Shown here piece by piece: positions 2,852 through 33,103 of a stretch of 38,089 bases of DNA (its first letter is position 1; each line of letters begins with the position of its first letter). The notes beneath the pieces were generated by a model. It was not told the DNA's origin, did not search any database, and worked only from the letters and a program-made list of their open reading frames with translations. The translations under genes and the position numbers were made by a program. The stretch is taken from the IMG/VR virus record IMGVR_UViG_2917886563_000005. One strand, 5' to 3'. The DNA is from a virus. Taxonomy: Duplodnaviria > Heunggongvirae > Uroviricota > Caudoviricetes.

Positions 2852-5116
2852 TCATTTCGATGAGTTAATTGCCTCAATGATACGCTTCAGGATTTCATTA
2901 TTTCTGCGTTGTAATGCAGCCTCAAGGACTAAGGCCTCTTCATAACGGATCCCATAACGTGAGCCTGCCGGAGTGACCAGAATATCTTCATATTCTGGAT
3001 CTGCCTCTTCTTCATACTCTTCTTCGACTTCTTGAAACTCTGTCTCGATGTACTCTTCTTCTACATCTTCAACTACAGGGACGCTCACGAATGGATTTTG
3101 CGCAAATGGTGAACCATCTTCATTAAGAACAGGTATCATTTCCATTTTTGGAGCCTGATACTCTTCATTCACTACTCGTTTAATCCGTGTTCCGTCTTCC
3201 AGTACCTCATCCTTTAATACCTGACGACTCTCAGTAACCATCACTTGTTTGCTTACAATTCGAGTTTTAGTAACCTGCACAGGAACTGTTGTTATGCGAG
3301 TTTTAGTAACCATTACACCTTCGTTTGTCTGAACCTTAGTATATTGATCATCCCACTCGTCAAAGCAAAAGAATCCAAATCGGTGCACATCAAGCCCATG
3401 ACGTTCAAACGCCTCCTTTGCACGTTGAGCTATTACGCCAAAATGCCAACGAGCTCCGTCTTCTCCTTTTTCTTCTGTTCTGTCAAGATACTGAAATTGA
3501 ACGAAGTCAACCTCTGACCATGCGTCAAGTATTGTATCAGTGATTTCAAGAGGTGCAGTTTTAGCTCGCTCATCTGAAGTAACGGTAAAGGCTGTTTGAG
3601 TGAATCCACCAGACCACACACGACCAGCAGTTCCGACCGTGCTATTACTGTTCTGTGAGTATGGTGTAATAGATGAGTCTACTCTTACAACCCCATCCCC
3701 CTTTGGAGATAGCCTCAAATCAATATCTGTATCGCTTCCAGCAACGCCAACAGCAGGAGCATTAGATGCTGTCTGTGAGCGCATGGCTAGATAATTGGCA
3801 GGAACTGTAGGCCCAGACTCTATGGAAAATATAGGTAACCCAGACGATAATCGTGTAAATACTACGCCATTATCACTAAATAACATTCTGGTTGATCTGG
3901 TTGCATCCTCCAAAACAGAGAGTATTTCAGAAGTTTTCTGATTTGAATTGTTGTACCAAGTCATTGAGTGTCTATTACCAAAAGCAATTGCCACACCTTG
4001 ACCTGTTGATTCTCCGTCGGTTCCTTTAAGGCTATTGCTGCCAAATACGATGCCCTTCAGAAAGCGTGCTGTTTTCCCAGCAGTTTTGTCGTTAGCTATT
4101 ATTCCAATTGCTGCCGATGCAGCATTCAACACTTCTCCAGCTTGGGTTAATTCACCACCTGAGCCTAACCATAATGCGTCAGTCTGACCGTTGGGGAACA
4201 TTGAATTAGGATACAGTTCACGCTCATTCCCCCTGTTTGCTATATCAAGTTCAAGACCGTGACTTGCTCCGATTGTTCCTGCATTTCTTACAGTTGAACC
4301 ATAAAGTGCCCATGCGCTAGACCTAACACCTGATGAATCATCGTTGTAAGCCATCCCGGCTACGGCAAGAGCAGCATTACCCGGTTCACCATCTCCAGTA
4401 TGAGCAGATCCAAAAATTCCTATCCCATCTGGTGGGGCAATCCCAACATTTCTACAGTGTCGCTCTAAATAGAAATAAATATTTCCCCCTAGCCCTGCCA
4501 TCCATGGCACTTGCCTTAACCAATACCCACCAATGAATGTAACATCCATTTCCATTTCCCACGATGTAAGTGGGTCTGAAACAATATCCTGACTTAACAA
4601 ATAAGTGCCAGCAGGAATATAAATTTTGCGCCTTGTCGCATTAGCCGCAAGAAACGCTTCAGTAGAATCAACAACCCCTGTTGGGTCAGCACCTCCGGCA
4701 AAACCACTCCAAGTAACAGGCTTTGCTAATCCTCCGACAAATCCAGCTCCACCAGGCCCCTCCAGTTCAGATCGCAGTTGATCGGGGTCATACTTCAGCA
4801 CATTAGGAAAATAGAACTGCTGCGCACCATATGCATCATATACAGCCATAGAATGGCCTTGCACAGTTACGAACTTGGCAATCTGTCCGTTATATACCGG
4901 GTAACCAGCAGCGTTAATGATGATTGGTTGCGAAACAGGAAAGTGAGAGCCGTCTTCGTTCTCCACATAAACCTGAATCTGGTTTTCAGGATTTACCGGG
5001 TCAGTGTCAATTTTACCGATATAAATTTTGCCATTGGCTACGGCTTTAAAAGAACGCGCCATAGTGAAGAGTTGCGAAGGCATACTCACTACAACATTAG
5101 CTGTAATGTCTGTCAT
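2852..5116 (-). CDS. Tailspike: P22 gp9-like N-terminal head-binding domain, different central receptor-binding domain, C-terminal S74-type intramolecular chaperone and Glu-rich tail
   Basis: N-terminus [11 protein letters not shown]...[11 protein letters not shown]...VLKYDPDQ matches recalled P22 gp9 residues 1-~110; C-terminal SDERAK...WHFGVIAQ is characteristic of the autocleaving chaperone domain. Confidence 0.85.
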
Positions 5117-28363: not shown

Positions 28364-29740
28364 TCATACGTCAGCCCCTTGTGCATATCGTCTGCCACGC
28401 GCAGCAGGTGCATTTGATGCTGTGCAAATCTGTCTGGCTTCATCCTGGTCACATGCAACAAAGTGTCCGTTACAGAACCGCTGGTAAACCGTACCAAGCG
28501 AGCCAAAACGGTTTTTCGTCACGATGATTTCAGCAAATGGCGCGGCGCTACTGTTCTCGTCATATACCGCTTCCCGATAGAGCATGATGATTGAGTCTGC
28601 GTCCTGCTCAATGCTTCCTGAATCACGTAAATCTGCGTTTGTCGGGCGTTTGTTTGGTCGCTTCTCAACATCGCGCGAAAGCTGACTTAGGGAGATAACA
28701 GGCGTTTTCAGGTCTTTCGCCATCGCCTTCAGGCTTCCTGAGATGTGAGCAATTGCGAGGTCGTTGCGGTCTGCTTTCGGCTTCTCAATCAGGCCAAGAT
28801 AATCCGCCATGATGAGTGACAGGTTTGGATTTTCCTGTTTGTGCCGCTCTGCGATTGAGCGAATTTCTTCTACCGATAACCGCGAGGCATCGACTACCCA
28901 TACATCCAAATCTGCAAGCTGACTCATGCCGTTAGCAACGCGCGCCCAGCCTTCGTCATCCATCGATGCAGGATTTCGCAGTACGCTAACCGACATCCTC
29001 CCGGCGTTGGCAATGCTTCGCTCTGCAATCTGCAATGCGCTCATTTCCATTGAGAAAATCAATACCCCGCGCCGGACGTCAGAACCAGGAATAACGCGGC
29101 TTGCAACGCCTTCGGCAATCTTCAGCGCCAGTTCGGTTTTCCCCATACCAGGACGAGCAGCGATTATCACCAGGTCTTCCGCGTTCATCCCTCCGGTGAT
29201 GGCATCAAGTTCTTCGATTCCGGTCTTCAGGGTATCTGACTCTTCTCCGTTCCTCAGACGCCTGTCAAGCGTGTCAGTGTAGTCAGTGATGATTTCCCCT
29301 AACCGTACCGGTTTAACCTCGTCACGGGGCTTTCTGATGGCTGAAAGACGCTTTACAAGTTCATCCATCGCCTGACTCGATGCGTCGATGGTTCCGCTCT
29401 GAATTGGTTCACGCATTTCATCCATGATTTCCAGCACCAGACGGCGGTGATAGTTATCCGCGACCATTCCGGCATATCCCTTCAGGTTTGCGGCACTCGG
29501 GCAGTTTTTGCTGGTCATCAGGATTGACGTGAAATGCTCCTCTCCGCACGCCTCGGCAACCATCAGCGCGTCGATTAGGTTTCTGTTTCGCGCCTGCTTG
29601 CGGATAACCTCGAAGGCTTTCCGGTAGAGCGGAATTGAAAACGCTTCCGGCTCCAGCGTTGCCAGAACGTCGCTGGCGGTTGGAGTTAATCCACCAATCA
29701 GCAGGCCACCGATAACGCTCGCTTCGATATCCTGTCTCAT
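28364..29740 (-). CDS. Replicative DNA helicase (DnaB family; P22 gp12-like), 458 aa
   Basis: DnaB N-terminal domain and Walker A ([15 protein letters not shown]), plus RecA-like motifs. Confidence 0.85.
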
Positions 29741-30558
29741 GCAATCCCCCTGTCTGCAAACTTCCCTTCCCGAACTCCCGTTAACGAGTCTTCCCTCAGC
29801 AGGTAATCAAAATCGGCCGTCCAGCCCGTGTCGTTGTCTCCGAAGTAAAACGGCTTGGCCTGATGCACAAACGCCCTGACATACGCTCTGAAACCGTCCA
29901 CGTTTGGCGTTTTCAGTTGCGGGATGATTTTCTTCAGGCGGCGTTTGCGTTTCTCGTTGACCGCAACAGCGTGTGGAAGTCTGTCACCGACTTCGGTGTT
30001 GTAGGCGTTCAGGAAGGATTCGTAGTCGATTCGTTCTGCCTTGCGACGTTCAGGTTTAACCTGCCCATCGCCGCCCCCGTTAGGGGGTAAGGGGGTATTT
30101 GTATTTATTGTCTTTTGTATATTGTCTTTTGTGTTTAGCTGACTTGGCTTATACCCATTAGCCGACTCGGCTAATGTTTTATTAGCTGCTTTAGCTAATG
30201 TTAAGCTGTCCTGGCTAATCCACTGCGAAACCACCTTGTTTACTCCGATTTTCACGCCATCAGCAATGAGGAATTTACGCTCAATAAGCTGGCGCTTGGC
30301 AGCGCAAACATGAGTGTGATGAATACCTGTCATGGCTGCTATCTGCGTGTTTGTGAGTCGATCCATCGGCTTATTGAATCCGTATGTCTTGCGCATGATA
30401 GCGAGCATCACCTTCAACTGCCGGACGGTTAAATCAGCCATCAGCAGACTGTCGGTAATCTCGTTAGCAACGCGCATGAAACCATCTTCGGTATCTGCCA
30501 CGCGATGCTCCACGACCTCCAGTTGAGGCCTGTAATCAGCTAACTTAACGACGCCCAT
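29737..30558 (-). CDS. Replication initiator (O-like; P22 gp18-like), 273 aa, containing the origin
   Basis: O-type N-terminal DNA-binding domain; iterons and AT-rich tract inside the gene. Confidence 0.8.
30075..30221 (-). other. Replication origin: four ~19-bp iterons, an AT-rich tract and a G/C-rich inverted repeat
   Basis: Iteron-like repeats ttagctgacttggcttata / ttagccgactcggctaatg / ttagctgctttagctaatg / ttaagctgtcctggctaatc; AT-rich 30096..30135; cccccgttagggggtaaggggg. Confidence 0.65.
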
Positions 30559-30740: not shown

Positions 30741-31019
30741 TCAGGCCTCAAAACTGTTGCAGCAGTCTTGAGGCTTTTCTTTTGTCAGCACCTTGGCTAC
30801 TTTCTTTGCCAGTTCCGCCAATTCCTCGTCTTCAACACCCCACTCCAGCACAGCCAGAAGCATGGCCATCTTTGGGATAAAGCTGTCTTTCCATCGCGAA
30901 ATTTGCGATTCATTAATCCCTAACGCGTCGGCAACCTTTCGCTGACCACGTACAGCAATTCGATTTAGGATGTTGCTTGTAATTGCATTCGCTTTCTTGC
31001 GAGTACTTGTAAGTTGCAT
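30741..31019 (-). CDS. c1: C1 protein (lambda CII homologue), 92 aa
   Basis: ...ESQISRWKDSFIPKMAMLLAVLEWGVEDEE... is the CII-family HTH and tetramerisation region; start MQLTST with AAGGA upstream. Confidence 0.8.
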   Translation of the reverse strand: MQLTSTRKKANAITSNILNRIAVRGQRKVADALGINESQISRWKDSFIPKMAMLLAVLEWGVEDEELAELAKKVAKVLTKEKPQDCCNSFEA

Positions 31020-31076
31020 ATGTAAGTATTTCCTTAACAAATAAGAAGTTATACGCACCAACTGATGCGCGTTGTA

Positions 31077-31121
31077 TTCCCGCATTTCGGCGGGAATGAG
31101 GACCATGACTGTTAAAGAGCA
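31077..31121 (-). promoter_or_regulatory. nutR: boxA (31110..31121) and boxB hairpin (31077..31096) between cro and c1
   Basis: Minus strand reads TGCTCTTTAACA then uucccgc-cgaaau-gcgggaa. Confidence 0.6.
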
Positions 31122-31127
31122 ATTTGC

Positions 31128-31313
31128 TTATGCCGCTTTGCGATAAGCACTTTCTTGATACTTCAGGGCGCCAGCTGTAACGACTTCCAGTCGATAGGCG
31201 TCTTTCTCTGGGATGACTTCCTTCCACTGAGAGACTGCTGCATCGCTAATGCCTAACGCTTTAGCTACCGCACGCTGGGTTCCGAAGTGGTCGATAACAT
31301 CTTTCTTGTACAT
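31128..31313 (-). CDS. cro: Cro repressor (P22-type), 61 aa
   Basis: MYKKDVIDHFGTQRAVAKALGISDAAVSQWKEVIPEKDAYRLEVVTAGALKYQ... matches recalled P22 Cro. Confidence 0.9.
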   Translation of the reverse strand: MYKKDVIDHFGTQRAVAKALGISDAAVSQWKEVIPEKDAYRLEVVTAGALKYQESAYRKAA

Positions 31314-31327
31314 AGACTCGCTCCGAA

Positions 31328-31393
31328 ATTAAAGAACACTTAAATTATCTATCAAAGGAATCTTAAGTCAAGTTTATTTAAGATGTCTTAACT
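31328..31393. promoter_or_regulatory. Right operator region: three 18-bp P22-type operators (31328..31345, 31351..31368, 31376..31393) overlapping divergent PR (-35 TTGACT at 31366..31371, minus strand) and PRM
   Basis: Each site fits nnnnAAGnnnnCTTnnnn; the third abuts the c2 start codon, consistent with a leaderless PRM transcript. Confidence 0.7.
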
Positions 31394-32044
31394 ATGAATA
31401 CACAACTGATGGGTGAGCGTATTCGCGCTCGCAGAAAAGAACTCAAAATTAGGCAGGCTGCCCTTGGCAAGATGGTTGGCGTGTCTAATGTTGCTATTTC
31501 CCAATGGGAGCGTTCTGAAACTGAGCCCAATGGCGAAAACCTATTGGCCTTAGCCAAGGCTTTGCAGTGCTCCCCTGATTACTTGTTGAAAGGAGAAGAT
31601 AGTCTTTCAAACATTGCCTATCACAGCAGGCATGATCCAAGAGGTTCGTATCCTCTAATTAGTTGGGTAAGCGCAGGATGTTGGATGGAAGCTGTAGAGC
31701 CATATCATAAGCGTGCAATAGATAACTGGTACGATACAACCGTAGATTGTTCAGAAGATTCGTTTTGGCTGGACGTAAAGGGTGATTCGATGACGGCTCC
31801 AGCCGGTCTCAGCATCCCCGAAGGAATGATAATACTCGTCGATCCTGAAGTAGAACCTCGTAACGGGAAGCTTGTAGTGGCAAAGCTCGAAGGAGAAAAC
31901 GAGGCAACTTTCAAGAAGTTAGTTATTGATGCAGGCAGAAAGTTTCTAAAACCACTTAACCCACAATATCCGATGATTGAGATCAACGGGAACTGCAAAA
32001 TCATCGGTGTAGTTGTCGATGCAAAAATAGCAAACCTTCCATAA
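31394..32044 (+). CDS. c2: C2 repressor (P22-type, LexA-like autocleaving), 216 aa
   Basis: MNTQLMGERIRARRKELKIRQAALGKMVGVSNVAISQWERSETEPNGENLLALAKALQCSPDYLL... matches recalled P22 C2. Confidence 0.9.
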   Translation: MNTQLMGERIRARRKELKIRQAALGKMVGVSNVAISQWERSETEPNGENLLALAKALQCSPDYLLKGEDSLSNIAYHSRHDPRGSYPLISWVSAGCWMEAVEPYHKRAIDNWYDTTVDCSEDSFWLDVKGDSMTAPAGLSIPEGMIILVDPEVEPRNGKLVVAKLEGENEATFKKLVIDAGRKFLKPLNPQYPMIEINGNCKIIGVVVDAKIANLP

Positions 32045-32064
32045 GGGGCATTCGCCCCTTTTTT
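32044..32064 (+). terminator. Intrinsic terminator immediately after c2
   Basis: ggggc-attc-gcccc followed by tttttt. Confidence 0.6.
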
Positions 32065-32107
32065 CTTTCCTTTAAAAATCAAAGCAAAACTTAAGTCCCA
32101 CAATAAA

Positions 32108-32160
32108 ATTTAAGTTTTCTTCAAAACACCCTTGACCATTAATTAAAGAAATCTTAAATT
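32108..32160 (+). promoter_or_regulatory. Left operator/promoter: two clear operators (32108..32125, 32142..32159) and PL (-35 TTGACC 32132..32137, -10 TAAATT 32155..32160)
   Basis: Operators fit nnnnAAGnnnnCTTnnnn; promoter hexamers separated by 17 bp. Confidence 0.6.
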
Positions 32161-32206
32161 TAAGCCATCAGCAGGACGCTGGTAGCCAAACGGAACAGAT
32201 TGGCAG

Positions 32207-32247
32207 GCTCTTTAACATTGATGGGATTGTCCCGCCGAAATGCGGGA
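32207..32247 (+). promoter_or_regulatory. nutL: boxA (GCTCTTTAACA, 32207..32217) and boxB hairpin (32230..32247)
   Basis: boxB ucccgc-cgaaau-gcggga has the same sequence as the nutR boxB. Confidence 0.6.
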
Positions 32248-32361
32248 ACCAAAGAGTAGTTGGCTTTGGGGTGATGTGAAGTGCAGCAGCGCGACAGCAT
32301 CAGGGAGTTAACCTCCCTCCCCCCGTCACGTCACCGCTAAAGTCAATCATCGGAGGTCAAC

Positions 32362-32661
32362 ATGACAGTAGTCATTACATATCTGGCTGACGATAACGCC
32401 AGAAATCGCCGCAGAGCACGCAGACAGGCTCAACGTGAACAGGCAATGAATGAACAGCGACTGGCGCGGAAGATTGCGCTAAAGCTCTCTGGTTGCGTCA
32501 GAGCAGACAAAGCAGCATCACTTGGCAGCCTTCTCTGCAAGAAGGCAGATGAAGTCGAGCGTAAACAGAACCGTATTTACTACCGCAAGCCACGCAGCGA
32601 AATGGGTGTGACTTGTGTTGGTCGCCAGAAAATGAAATTAGGCAGCAAACCACTTATTTGA
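32362..32661 (+). CDS. N-like transcription antiterminator with arginine-rich motif, 99 aa
   Basis: N-terminal ARM DNARNRRRARRQAQREQ; first gene after PL/nutL; GGAGGT RBS; recalled as resembling phage 21 N. Confidence 0.7.
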   Translation: MTVVITYLADDNARNRRRARRQAQREQAMNEQRLARKIALKLSGCVRADKAASLGSLLCKKADEVERKQNRIYYRKPRSEMGVTCVGRQKMKLGSKPLI

Positions 32662-32669
32662 GGTGATAT

Positions 32670-32756
32670 ATGGAAGAAGAATTTGAAGAGTTCGAAGAGC
32701 ATCCGCAGGATGTGATGGAACAATACCAGGACTATCCGTATGACTACGACTATTGA
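32670..32756 (+). CDS. Tiny acidic 28-aa ORF (MEEEFEEFEEHPQDVMEQYQDYPYDYDY), not in the ORF track; speculative
   Basis: ATG 32670 preceded by GAGGTGA; overlaps ral start by 17 nt. Confidence 0.3.
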   Translation: MEEEFEEFEEHPQDVMEQYQDYPYDYDY

Positions 32757-32940
32757 TAAAAATCAATGGTGTGGACAATTCAAGCGATGCAATGGATGCA
32801 AGCTGCAATCGGAATGCATGGTTAAGCCTGAAGAAATGTTTCCTGTAATGGAGGATGGGAAATATGTCGATAAATGGGCAATACGAACGACGGCAATGAT
32901 TGCCAGAGAACTTGGTAAACAGAATAACAAGGCTGCCTGA
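32740..32940 (+). CDS. ral: Ral restriction-alleviation protein, 66 aa
   Basis: MTTTIDKNQWCGQFKRCNGCKLQSECMVKPEEMFPVMEDGKYVDKW... matches recalled lambda Ral. Confidence 0.8.
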   Translation: MTTTIDKNQWCGQFKRCNGCKLQSECMVKPEEMFPVMEDGKYVDKWAIRTTAMIARELGKQNNKAA

Positions 32941-33074
32941 TGGTGGCCTTTATTTTTGGCATAAACAACAGAATAAACACTGCACTGTGTATTCATTCCA
33001 ACGAGTGCATACACGGAGCAATGTCGCTCGTAACTAAACAGGAGCCGACTTGTTCTGATTATTGGAAATCTTCT

Positions 33075-33103
33075 TTGCCCTCCAATGTGAGGGCAATTTT
33101 TTT
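33075..33103 (+). terminator. Intrinsic terminator in the early-left operon (tL-like)
   Basis: ttgccctc-caatgt-gagggcaa followed by ttttttt. Confidence 0.6.

Follow-up and report, generated by a model that had tools for sequence, protein, structure and literature searches.

The paradigm for early transcription antitermination by N proteins, which are disordered until bound, comes from phages lambda, P22 and 21. Antitermination of rrn operons works without N. Nun-type proteins also carry an N-terminal arginine-rich motif (ARM) and bind boxB. The HK620 genome paper is reportedly that of Clark et al. 2001. In the HK620 record (AF335538), putative nut sites have been annotated since 2001. The boxA of the rrnG leader is ugcucuuuaaca and that of lambda is CGCUCUUA, and the lambda spacer has served as the model for a NusA contact (PMC2724277). 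In the P22 complex 1A4T, HIS7 and ARG11 of the peptide contact a looped-out cytosine (PMC12550061). For the HK620-type ARM and boxB we found no experiment, structure or binding study in the searchable literature; the sole relevant match was the epsilon34 genome paper, in which N-terminal swaps are discussed as a sign of a new boxB specificity.

In this work we focused on the early region of a 38,089-nucleotide stretch of Caudoviricetes DNA (IMG/VR record IMGVR_UViG_2917886563_000005), hereafter called the window. We read it as the early transcription-antitermination module (N/nut) of a P22-like (Lederbergvirus-type) lambdoid E. coli phage or prophage, belonging to the HK620 specificity class, and give this reading a probability of about 0.9. 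It is carried by sequence, position, hairpin folding, homology of N, identity of the nut sites with those of HK620 and co-inheritance of ARM and boxB. The module is an ordinary lambdoid early-gene switch, made of a small arginine-rich N and two RNA hairpin sites, and it was already known: the reading is right yet not new, since the HK620 record had identical sites annotated in 2001. An earlier reading of this DNA, made from the sequence only, had taken the boxB/N pair as possibly unfamiliar, and in this respect it has to be corrected, the pair being that of the annotated HK620 class.

Promoters, neighbouring genes and terminators

The following features surround the nut sites and the N gene:

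32132-32160, plus strand: candidate promoter pL (TTGACC, 17 nt, TAAATT), from a sigma-70 consensus scan and placed like the annotated pL of HK620
31344-31371, minus strand: candidate promoter pR (TTGACT, 16 nt, GATAAT), from the consensus scan with 10/12 matches
31394-32044, plus strand: cI/c2 repressor gene between the nut sites, from its domains (HTH and S24 peptidase) and ~84% DNA identity to P22 immC
31128-31313, minus strand: cro (P22_Cro family), first gene of the pR operon (Pfam PF14549, 8.7e-28)
30741-31022, minus strand: cII/c1 activator gene, downstream of nutR (Pfam Phage_CII, 9.7e-45)
32259-32348 (approximate), plus strand: long imperfect hairpin of the N leader, between nutL and the N ribosome-binding site, from a predicted fold
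31047-31070, minus strand: candidate tR1 region, hairpin GCGCAUC/GGUGCGU followed by a U-rich stretch (fold, z = -2.5)
32929-32950, plus strand: candidate tL, intrinsic-terminator-like hairpin with a T-run downstream of ral, from a terminator scan
33075-33096, plus strand: candidate tL, hairpin TTGCCCTC..GAGGGCAA followed by T7, from the same kind of scan

The pL leader, from about position 32166 to boxA, is conserved among the window, HK620 and imm21. Folding of the N leader (32166-32380) gave -74.6 kcal/mol (z = -2.8), and its long hairpin may correspond in position to the N-leader RNase III hairpin of lambda. Position 1 of the Phage_CII profile falls on residue 2 of the 93-aa cII reading. 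The N7 and CUS-3 records annotate the cII start upstream, so that the gene runs through nutR. The HK620 record places tR1 directly 3' of nutR, like the hairpin at 31047-31070, which a simple terminator scan of the window did not detect; its assignment as tR1 is uncertain. The two tL hairpins are candidate targets of N.

The nut sites

The pL and pR transcripts carry one nut site each, ahead of the first terminators and shortly after a promoter-like site of matching orientation:

32207-32247, plus strand: nutL, between pL and the 99-aa N gene
32207-32217, plus strand: nutL boxA GCTCTTTAACA, an exact match, the same as rrnG boxA gcucuuuaaca (PMC2724277)
32218-32229, plus strand: nutL spacer TTGATGGGATTG, the same as the HK620 nutL spacer
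32230-32247, plus strand: nutL boxB hairpin UCCCGC/CGAAAU/GCGGGA, loop at 32236-32241, from its fold and an exact match
31076-31120, minus strand: nutR, between cro and cII
31110-31120, minus strand: nutR boxA GCTCTTTAACA, preceded by a T that gives UGCUCUUUAACA as in rrnG
31098-31109, minus strand: nutR spacer GTCATGGTCCTC, the same as the HK620 nutR spacer
31076-31097, minus strand: nutR boxB hairpin AUUCCCGC/CGAAAU/GCGGGAAU, loop at 31084-31089, folding with an 8-bp stem

nutL starts 47 nt past the -10 element of pL, and the boxA of nutR begins 7 nt beyond the cro stop codon, upstream of cII. By analogy with lambda, the nutL spacer would be the region contacted by NusA. The sequence-only reading had described two nut sites with an identical boxB, and this was borne out: the 19-mer TCCCGCCGAAATGCGGGAA (boxB RNA GUCCCGCCGAAAUGCGGGAC) has exactly two copies in the window, at 32230-32248 (plus strand) and 31077-31095 (minus strand), with no further copy there even at 3 mismatches and none expected by chance. 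The statement that boxA lies very near the rrn consensus also held, as nutR matches the rrnG leader boxA at 12/12 positions and nutL at 11/12.

The boxA GCTCTTTAACA occurs exactly twice in the window, each time with a boxB of the same strand 12-14 nt to its 3' side (12 nt from the 19-mer at nutL, 14 nt at nutR). Whereas boxA by itself is unremarkable, two or more hits at 1 mismatch being obtained in 18/100 shuffles, its pairing with boxB is statistically striking. The nutL boxB folds into a 6-bp stem with the hexaloop CGAAAU (-9.7 to -10.5 kcal/mol, z = -3.0) and the nutR boxB into an 8-bp stem with the same hexaloop (-12.4 kcal/mol, z = -3.9); none of 200 shuffles gave hairpins as stable. Rfam, searched over the whole window at the gathering threshold and permissively over 30900-32450, returned no nut or boxB family. 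The only match was a chance sRNA (E = 1.5).

We considered whether the hairpins might instead be terminators, RNase processing sites or chance palindromes, with boxA alone providing rrn-style antitermination, for which no N is required. The match of boxA to the rrn consensus over 11-12 nt would suit this explanation, as would its ordinary frequency in the window. Yet neither hairpin is followed by a U-tract, the same 19-mer at both sites is not expected by chance, boxB is invariant across relatives, and it tracks the type of phage-encoded ARM even where N proteins and immunity regions are otherwise unrelated. We regard this explanation as very improbable and retain the N/nut reading. Within that reading, boxA on its own may still allow partial read-through independent of N.

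The N protein

Two features define the protein:

32362-32661, plus strand: gene of the N antitermination protein, 99 aa, mosaic, from homology to the N proteins of HK620, phage 21 and lambda
32392-32445, plus strand: codons 11-28 of N, ARM DNARNRRRARRQAQREQA, from alignment with other N types

N comes first in the pL operon, no family-supported ORF being found between pL (32132-32160) and position 32362, and it has a ribosome-binding site, GGAGG, 7 nt upstream. The strong ARM that the sequence-only reading had seen in the 99-aa protein downstream of nutL is indeed there, with seven Arg in residues 14-25 (RNRRRARRQAQR); residues 12-25 read NARNRRRARRQAQR and residues 8-33 LADDNARNRRRARRQAQREQAMNEQR. 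When lambda, P22, phage 21, HK620 and hybrid N proteins were aligned, Ala13, Arg16, Arg20 and Arg21 of the ARM were invariant. The alignments placed the protein in the N family and not in an unrelated one, with PHROG 271, "anti-termination protein N-like", matching at 7.2e-36.

Residues 1-64, including the ARM, are 94-95% identical to the HK620-type N proteins of HK620, mEp213 and ECP1. Over residues 34-99 the identity to phage 21 N is ~94%, and residues 62-99 align with residues 74-110 of lambda N (PDB 6GOV chain N, E = 2e-4). By these comparisons N is a mosaic of an HK620-type N-terminus and a phage 21/lambda-type C-terminus. Residues 34-64 are nearly identical in phage 21, H-19B-type and HK620 N and have no detectable similarity to residues 34-47 of lambda N; their conservation suggests a candidate central NusA-binding segment.

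The protein scored 20.3 bits with Pfam PF25694 (N_peptide), below the cutoff of 27.9. This P22-centred model also misses phage 21 N (22.4 bits) and lambda N (16.4 bits), and we therefore discarded it as uninformative for family membership, since bona fide N proteins fall short of it. The Pfam N36 model (PF11438) matches lambda N only. As NCBIfam has no model for N and Rfam no nut family, neither N nor nut is backed by these collections.

An ARM protein that binds boxB could also be a Nun-like exclusion or termination factor, arresting polymerase on a competitor phage; mEp235 and mEpX1 do have Nun genes, separate and just downstream of N. The window protein shows no similarity to mEp235 Nun, however (BLASTP, E = 5.2), its C-terminus is that of an N, with 94% identity to phage 21 N and an alignment to the C-terminal region of lambda N, and its cognate boxB sites are part of the pL and pR transcripts of the same phage. 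A Nun identity was thus rejected as extremely improbable, and we continue with the protein as N.

Pairing of ARM and boxB types

In 12 reference loci, four ARM types correspond one to one with four boxB types, while the C-terminal modules assort independently:

Lambda ARM with boxB GCCCUGAAGAAGGGC: lambda, Sf101 and mEp213 N1
Phage 21 ARM with boxB UCUCAACCUAACCGUUGAGA: imm21, VT1-Sakai, mEp235 and mEpX1
P22 ARM with boxB GCGCUGACAAAGCGC: P22 and SH2026Stx1
HK620 ARM with boxB UCCCGCCGAAAUGCGGGA: the window, HK620 and Stx2c_EH1904

The window belongs to the HK620 class at both nut sites (boxB UCCCGCCGAAAUGCGGGA) and in its ARM DDNARNRRRARRQAQREQ, all identical to HK620. A DNA block of ~240 bp, comprising spacer, boxB, N leader and N codons 1-33, is flanked on both sides by segments shared with phage 21. 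In the reverse direction, IMG/VR was scanned for boxA with a CGAAAUG loop, counting the nutL sites with a readable downstream ORF. Nearly all of these precede an N with the core NARNRRRA(R/K)R (one has TAKNRRRERR), and the core is kept where other parts of N have diverged, the C-termini being of at least three types.

The natural variants from these searches support the predicted boxB stem. In their alignment 87.5% of cells are paired, with the best register at slide 0, and 4/8 pairs change on both sides, which was equalled in 2/500 shuffles. This covariation is thin, the inner four pairs being almost invariant, with a lone G-C to A-U swap in one nutR.

As the sequence-only reading had stated, boxB differs from the lambda and P22 boxB, here compared with the lambda and P22 nutL boxB of the reference genomes. 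A distinct N specificity of the HK620-type ARM and boxB is plausible because the two are co-inherited in the comparative data, its sole support. We would venture, at somewhat less than even odds, that among natural N targets the HK620-class boxB may be alone in having a true GNRA tetraloop (GAAA), flanked by a C.U mismatch, and that its ARM, which has no counterpart of lambda Trp18 and carries other residues at the cytosine-contact positions of P22, may form a fourth orthogonal ARM-boxB pair.

Alternatively, the HK620-type pair might overlap functionally with that of P22, perhaps also with that of lambda, and be a drifted P22-class variant rather than a separate class. The P22 nutR boxB (AF217253), ACCGC-C-GACAA-C-GCGGU, resembles CCCGC-C-GAAA-U-GCGGG of the window in its CCGC/GCGG stem and in the mismatch of its flanking pair, and the main difference between the loops is the C extruded in the P22 complex (PMC12550061); because the two are this close, some overlap with P22 specificity is conceivable. 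Both ARMs contain N-A-x-x-R-R-x-x-R-R, and the title of Cocozaki et al. 2008 (cited in PMC8022706) states that the lambda and P22 boxB requirements overlap. Against this, the ARM differs from that of P22 at about half of its positions, Arg18 and Gln22 of the window N align with the His and the third Arg of P22 RRHERRR (mapped to HIS7 and ARG11 of 1A4T), the loop sizes differ (tetraloop-like in the window, a pentaloop in P22), and the combination of an HK620 ARM with a P22-type boxB, or the reverse, is absent from every locus examined. We consider a drifted P22-class variant rather unlikely.

Distribution and conservation

The same mosaic N was found in IME10, N7 and CUS-3, in at least 80 viral contigs and in ~255/5,426 complete E. 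coli genomes, where RefSeq labels it "hypothetical protein". In all nut sites recovered from 80 close relatives boxA and boxB are invariant, while the flanks vary at scattered positions. As all relatives from the protein-based IMG/VR scan had 93% identity or more, the scan gave conservation without covariation, and the covariation data were therefore taken from the RNA-motif search. Some relatives carry an insert of ~250 nt after boxB, between nutL and N, for which Rfam and folding gave nothing.

A scan of a 596-Gb genome collection with the 18-nt boxB alone gave mostly chance matches in unrelated bacteria and was uninformative, the palindromic GC-rich 18-mer being too short for a collection of that size. 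Two inverted copies ~1.15 kb apart, as a nutL/nutR pair would have them, were found only in Escherichia sp. E1V33 and in a contig binned as Segatella copri. A single match occurred in Tatumella punctata.

Proposed mechanism

On the model of lambda, P22 and phage 21, RNA binding, the use of Nus factors and the choice of the terminators that are overridden can be proposed. Upon induction or infection, RNA polymerase would start at pL and pR. In each transcript boxA (GCUCUUUAACA, of the rrn-type consensus) would come first and recruit NusB/NusE, followed by the spacer and by boxB, in which a CCCGC/GCGGG stem carries the loop CGAAAU; this loop is probably a GAAA tetraloop next to a C.U mismatch. 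As the first pL product, N would bind boxB through its arginine-rich helix (about residues 12-28, NARNRRRARRQAQREQA), and its phage 21/lambda-type C-terminal part would bind the elongating polymerase together with NusA and NusG. Once modified in this way, the polymerase would pass tR1 to reach cII, O and P; by passing the tL terminators it would reach ral and the recombination genes.

Significance

The main value of this analysis is a correct annotation, with little beyond it. Prophage annotation misses a common regulator here, because NCBIfam and the Pfam N_peptide model capture neither the phage 21-type N nor the HK620/21 mosaic. The HK620 ARM-boxB class is common; it is a candidate fourth orthogonal N-peptide/boxB tethering pair and a candidate for testing how an ARM helix reads a real GNRA tetraloop. 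Should the tentative view of its loop and specificity be true, the pair would be useful as an extra RNA-tethering tag, and would provide the missing reference for how the pentaloops of lambda and P22 and the hexaloop of phage 21 imitate a GNRA fold.

Comparison with known phages

Lambda has the overall logic and layout of the window, and the C-terminal region of its N is homologous. Of the lambda ARM, the window N keeps Ala3, Arg6-8 and Arg10-11, whereas Trp18 aligns with Ala28; lambda boxA is non-consensus (CGCUCUUA) and its boxB, GCCCUGAAGAAGGGC, has a pentaloop.

P22 is of the same phage type as the window, whose virion genes are P22-like, and the c2/cro immunity regions of the two are ~84% identical. 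The gp24 of P22 shares the ARM pattern given above, and the CCGC/GCGG stem recurs in P22 nutR boxB, again with a mismatched pair next to the loop. The ARM of gp24 differs in about half of its residues, however, the central and C-terminal parts of gp24 are unrelated to the window N, and the P22 boxB has a GACAA pentaloop with a looped-out C in place of GAAA.

In phage 21 (lambda imm21) the pL leader and boxA are identical to those of the window, the gene order is the same, with ral downstream, and residues 34-99 of the window N are ~94% identical. Its ARM GTAKSRYKARRAELIAERR and its boxB, UCUCAACCUAACCGUUGAGA at nutL and UCACCUCUAACCGGGUGA at nutR, are of another type.

The P22-like coliphages IME10, N7, CUS-3 and vB_EcoP-611R6 carry the mosaic N over its full length at 92-96% identity. 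The records of N7, CUS-3 and 611R6 label it N or antitermination protein, and those of IME10 leave it unannotated; nut sites are unannotated in the records of all four. The virion genes of IME10 are ~95% identical to those of the window, and the gap between cI and N in CUS-3 is longer, consistent with the nutL-N insert of other relatives.

HK620 has boxA, spacer and boxB identical base for base to the window at both nutL and nutR ("putative N-utilization", AF335538), in the same placement relative to pL, pR, cro and cII. Its N is identical over residues 1-29 and ~94% identical over residues 1-64, the whole ARM included. The last 35 residues of HK620 N are of the P22/H-19B type (…LPNVAIYAAGYRKSKQLTAR), whereas those of the window N are of the phage 21/lambda type (…ERKQNRIYYRKPRSEMGVTCVGRQKMKLGSKPLI); likewise, the HK620 record describes a cI similar to that of 434/L and a cro similar to that of lambda/HK97, whereas the window has a P22-like c2 and cro.

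Results

The window is a lambdoid coliphage or prophage of P22-like type, and its virion genes share ~95% DNA identity with those of phage IME10. The region around the nut sites is a classical immunity/early-control region, with a map reversed relative to lambda:

28364-29740 (-), DnaB-like helicase
29737-30558 (-), O replication protein
30741-31022 (-), cII/c1 activator
31076-31120 (-), nutR
31128-31313 (-), P22-type cro
31371-31344 (-), pR-like promoter, TTGACT/GATAAT
31394-32044 (+), c2/cI repressor with HTH and S24 peptidase domains
32132-32160 (+), pL-like promoter, TTGACC/TAAATT
32207-32247 (+), nutL
32362-32661 (+), 99-aa ORF (N)
32740-32940 (+), ral

In CUS-3 (710-1090) and N7 (542-907), cII is annotated from an upstream ATG, with lengths of 381 and 366 nt, so that the coding sequence crosses the nutR boxB (window equivalent 31022-31106 (-)). 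Judging from the sequence, the true start is likely the ATG at window position 31022 (93 aa), where the Pfam CII profile begins. Between N and ral lies a very acidic short ORF (MEEEFEEFEEHPQDVMEQYQDYPYDYDY, 32671-32757 (+)), the first 30 nt of which fall within a stretch identical to lambda imm21.

The sequence-only reading had described matched nut sites with identical boxB, a boxA close to the rrn consensus and an N-like protein with an arginine-rich motif (ARM), and this was borne out in all respects. The 19-mer TCCCGCCGAAATGCGGGAA occurs exactly twice in the window, at 32230-32248 (+) and 31077-31095 (-), with 0 copies expected by chance and no third match in the window when up to 3 mismatches were allowed. 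An exact boxA, GCTCTTTAACA, lies 5' of each copy on its own strand (32207-32217 (+) and 31110-31120 (-)), separated from it by 12 nt in nutL and 14 nt in nutR. The E. coli rrnG leader has ugcucuuuaaca and lambda boxA is CGCUCUUA (PMC2724277); since nutR matches the rrnG leader at 12/12 positions and nutL at 11/12, the boxA is correctly called rrn-like. The boxB hairpins carry the hexaloop CGAAAU on a 6-bp or 8-bp stem (z = -3.0 and -3.9), an equally good fold being found in none of 200 shuffles. Seven Arg are present within residues 14-25 of the 99-aa protein.

The N gene has a GGAGG 7 nt 5' of its ATG, and its product has a match (7e-36) to PHROG 271, "anti-termination protein N-like". In tblastn searches of sequenced phages, residues 1-64 were 94-95% identical to N of HK620, mEp213 and ECP1, residues 34-99 shared 94% identity with phage 21 N (lambda imm21, DE3), and full-length matches of 92-96% were found in IME10, N7 and vB_EcoP-611R6. 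On sequence comparison, the window N is a mosaic. Its C-terminal 38 residues also align with the lambda N of the antitermination complex structure 6GOV (E = 2e-4). Its Pfam N_peptide score of 20.3 bits, below the cutoff of 27.9, is not counter-evidence, because the model is centred on P22 gp24 (152 bits) and the N proteins of phage 21 (22.4) and lambda (16.4) fall below its cutoff too. Nun was excluded by comparison with mEp235 Nun (E = 5.2).

The HK620 record (AF335538) labels "nutL; putative N-utilization leftward" and "nutR; putative N-utilization rightward", and both sites are identical to those of the window across boxA, spacer and boxB. Together with the mosaic N, this identifies an HK620-class N/nut module fused to a phage 21-type N C-terminus. 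When the DNA of imm21, HK620 and the window is aligned, the three sequences share the pL leader and boxA (32166-32218). Next comes a segment of HK620 type only (32219 to ~32460), which holds the spacer, boxB, the N leader and N codons 1-33. Codons 34-64 are again shared by all three, and from 32554 onward the sequence is solely of phage 21 type. The HK620-only segment thus lies between conserved joints and places the nutL boxB and the ARM in a single ~240-bp block, a structure that accounts for free C-terminal assortment among ARM types. At nutR, HK620 homology starts exactly at boxA.

N and boxA-linked hairpins were then taken from twelve reference loci, in which four ARM types go with four boxB types:

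Table. ARM types and their nutL boxB (type: ARM; boxB; phages)
lambda: MDAQTRRRERRAEKQAQW; GCCCUGAAGAAGGGC; lambda, Sf101, first N of mEp213
phage 21: GTAKSRYKARRAELIAERR; UCUCAACCUAACCGUUGAGA; imm21, VT1-Sakai, mEp235, mEpX1
P22: GNAKTRRHERRRKLAIER; GCGCUGACAAAGCGC; P22, SH2026Stx1
HK620: DDNARNRRRARRQAQREQ; UCCCGCCGAAAUGCGGGA; window, HK620, Stx2c_EH1904

The C-terminal modules of these loci, of lambda/21 type (…RQKxKLGSKPLI), P22/H-19B type (…YAAGxRKSKQxTAR) or mEp235 type, mix freely across the ARM types. Among 80 close IMG/VR relatives, boxA and boxB were unchanged in all recovered nutL (78) and nutR (74) and the ARM core was altered in only 2 of the 79 N sequences read; the nut flanks vary at scattered positions. 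IMG/VR was also searched in reverse from the RNA motif (boxA, 14-24 nt, CGAAATG; stem unconstrained). The nutL-type sites with a readable downstream ARM ORF precede N with the core NARNRRRA(R/K)R, with one exception (TAKNRRRERR); at least 12 sites had no picked ORF (contig ends or an insert after boxB). This core is kept where the remainder of N has diverged (e.g. MTIVMTILASDNARNRRRAKRAAEREQ…), with at least three C-terminal types. Natural boxB stem variants still pair, through C-G to U.G changes and extended stems, and a G-C to A-U swap is found in the nutR of a further locus, between a cro-like gene and cII. Overall 87.5% of stem cells were paired, with both-side changes in 4 of 8 pairs (reached by 2/500 shuffles) and a register clearly best at slide 0; as the inner four pairs are almost invariant, this covariation gives modest support. 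Together, these results support ARM and boxB as a cognate pair.

The loop pattern also caught a boxA-linked GCTCTTTAACACCAAAGCAATTCGGATTCGAAATGTCTATAT in IMG/VR loci L172, L175, L187 and ~7 more, where it has no boxB-like hairpin; it is probably another nut class or a chance match. In the Stx2c phage Stx2_EH1904 (3001-3225), the HK620-ARM N has only 75 aa and an unrelated end, …KKADEPPRVSWRVFYL, which points to truncation or a frameshift of N, or to a further C-terminal module.

From nutL to the ribosome-binding site of N, the leader (32259-32348 (+)) folds into an extended, imperfectly paired hairpin, GGGGUGAUGUGA…UCACGUCACC, which includes a GGGAG/CUCCC stem internally; over all 215 nt of the leader, z = -2.8. 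The placement of this hairpin resembles that of the RNase III-processed hairpin in the lambda N leader, which modulates N translation. A ~250-nt GC-rich insert (…GCGGGAAC/TGAGTTTAACCAAAC…GAGTGTGAGT/CAAAGAGTAG…, slashes marking the joints), absent from the window, separates boxB from the N leader in Stx2_EH1904, mEp213 and 8 of the 80 IMG/VR relatives, directly 3' of the nutL boxB (window 32249/32250 equivalent). A longer cI-N gap suggests that CUS-3 carries it too. The insert has no Rfam match and an ordinary fold (z = -0.5).

Phage mEp213 (PV340538; 1217-3273) has two tandem N genes, the first lambda-type (1516-1848) with a lambda-type nutL, the second an HK620-ARM N (3001-3273). The 'boxB' 5' of the second (2626-2641, CCCTCCGAAATGCGGG) lacks a boxA, and its stem is broken by one mismatch. 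Because its 5' flank is that of window 33030-33085, the left arm of the tL terminator hairpin, it looks like a recombination joint between terminator stem and boxB stem via the short homology CCC(T/G)CC.

The module is common, and at least 568 relatives are present in IMG/VR. Of 5,426 complete E. coli genomes, 255 carry the nutL-N segment at ≥80% coverage and 1,527 carry part of it. The region under the match is a "hypothetical protein" in 10/10 RefSeq E. coli genomes among the top matches listed. NCBIfam has no N model and Pfam N_peptide misses phage 21-type and lambda N, leaving a common prophage regulator under-annotated.

Discussion

On every feature testable in this analysis, the module belongs to the lambdoid N/nut systems: an ARM, C-terminal homology, two well-placed boxA-boxB sites, N as the first pL gene, and ARM-boxB co-inheritance. 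The window N would act like N of lambda, P22 and phage 21. On nascent pL and pR transcripts, boxA would be bound by NusB/NusE, the spacer by NusA and boxB by the N ARM helix, after which the C-terminal part of N would lock on the elongation complex and confer terminator resistance. We infer these steps, binding and read-through alike, from homology and layout. Candidate targets are:

31047-31070, hairpin region directly 3' of nutR, labelled tR1 in the HK620 record
32929-32950, intrinsic-terminator-like hairpin after ral
33075-33096, second such hairpin after ral

For P22-like phages, modular swapping of the N-terminal segments that set specificity has already been discussed (PMC2629481; PMC8022706). 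The finding holds and is well formed; the module itself is of the ordinary lambdoid regulatory kind and had been annotated before. Our literature search found no experimental study of the HK620-type ARM-boxB pair, and the residual interest lies only in what would be a fourth class of N-peptide/boxB recognition.

One possible reading of the CGAAAU hexaloop is a GAAA tetraloop with a flanking C.U mismatch. The phage 21 complex (PDB 1NYB) is a direct precedent, its CUAACC hexaloop forming a tetraloop-like UAAC with a flanking non-canonical C-C pair. In the P22 complex (1A4T), the GACAA pentaloop loops out its C and folds in a GNRA-like manner (PMC12550061). The P22 nutR boxB (AF217253), ACCGC-C-GACAA-C-GCGGU, is near-identical to CCCGC-C-GAAA-U-GCGGG of the window apart from one extra looped-out C. 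Partial overlap of HK620-type with P22 specificity is a serious possibility, though less likely than not. A distinct N specificity, as the sequence-only reading proposed, is plausible from the comparison of ARM and boxB and consistent with their strict co-inheritance: the HK620 ARM retains the Ala and Arg positions common to all N proteins and has Ala where lambda N has Trp18.
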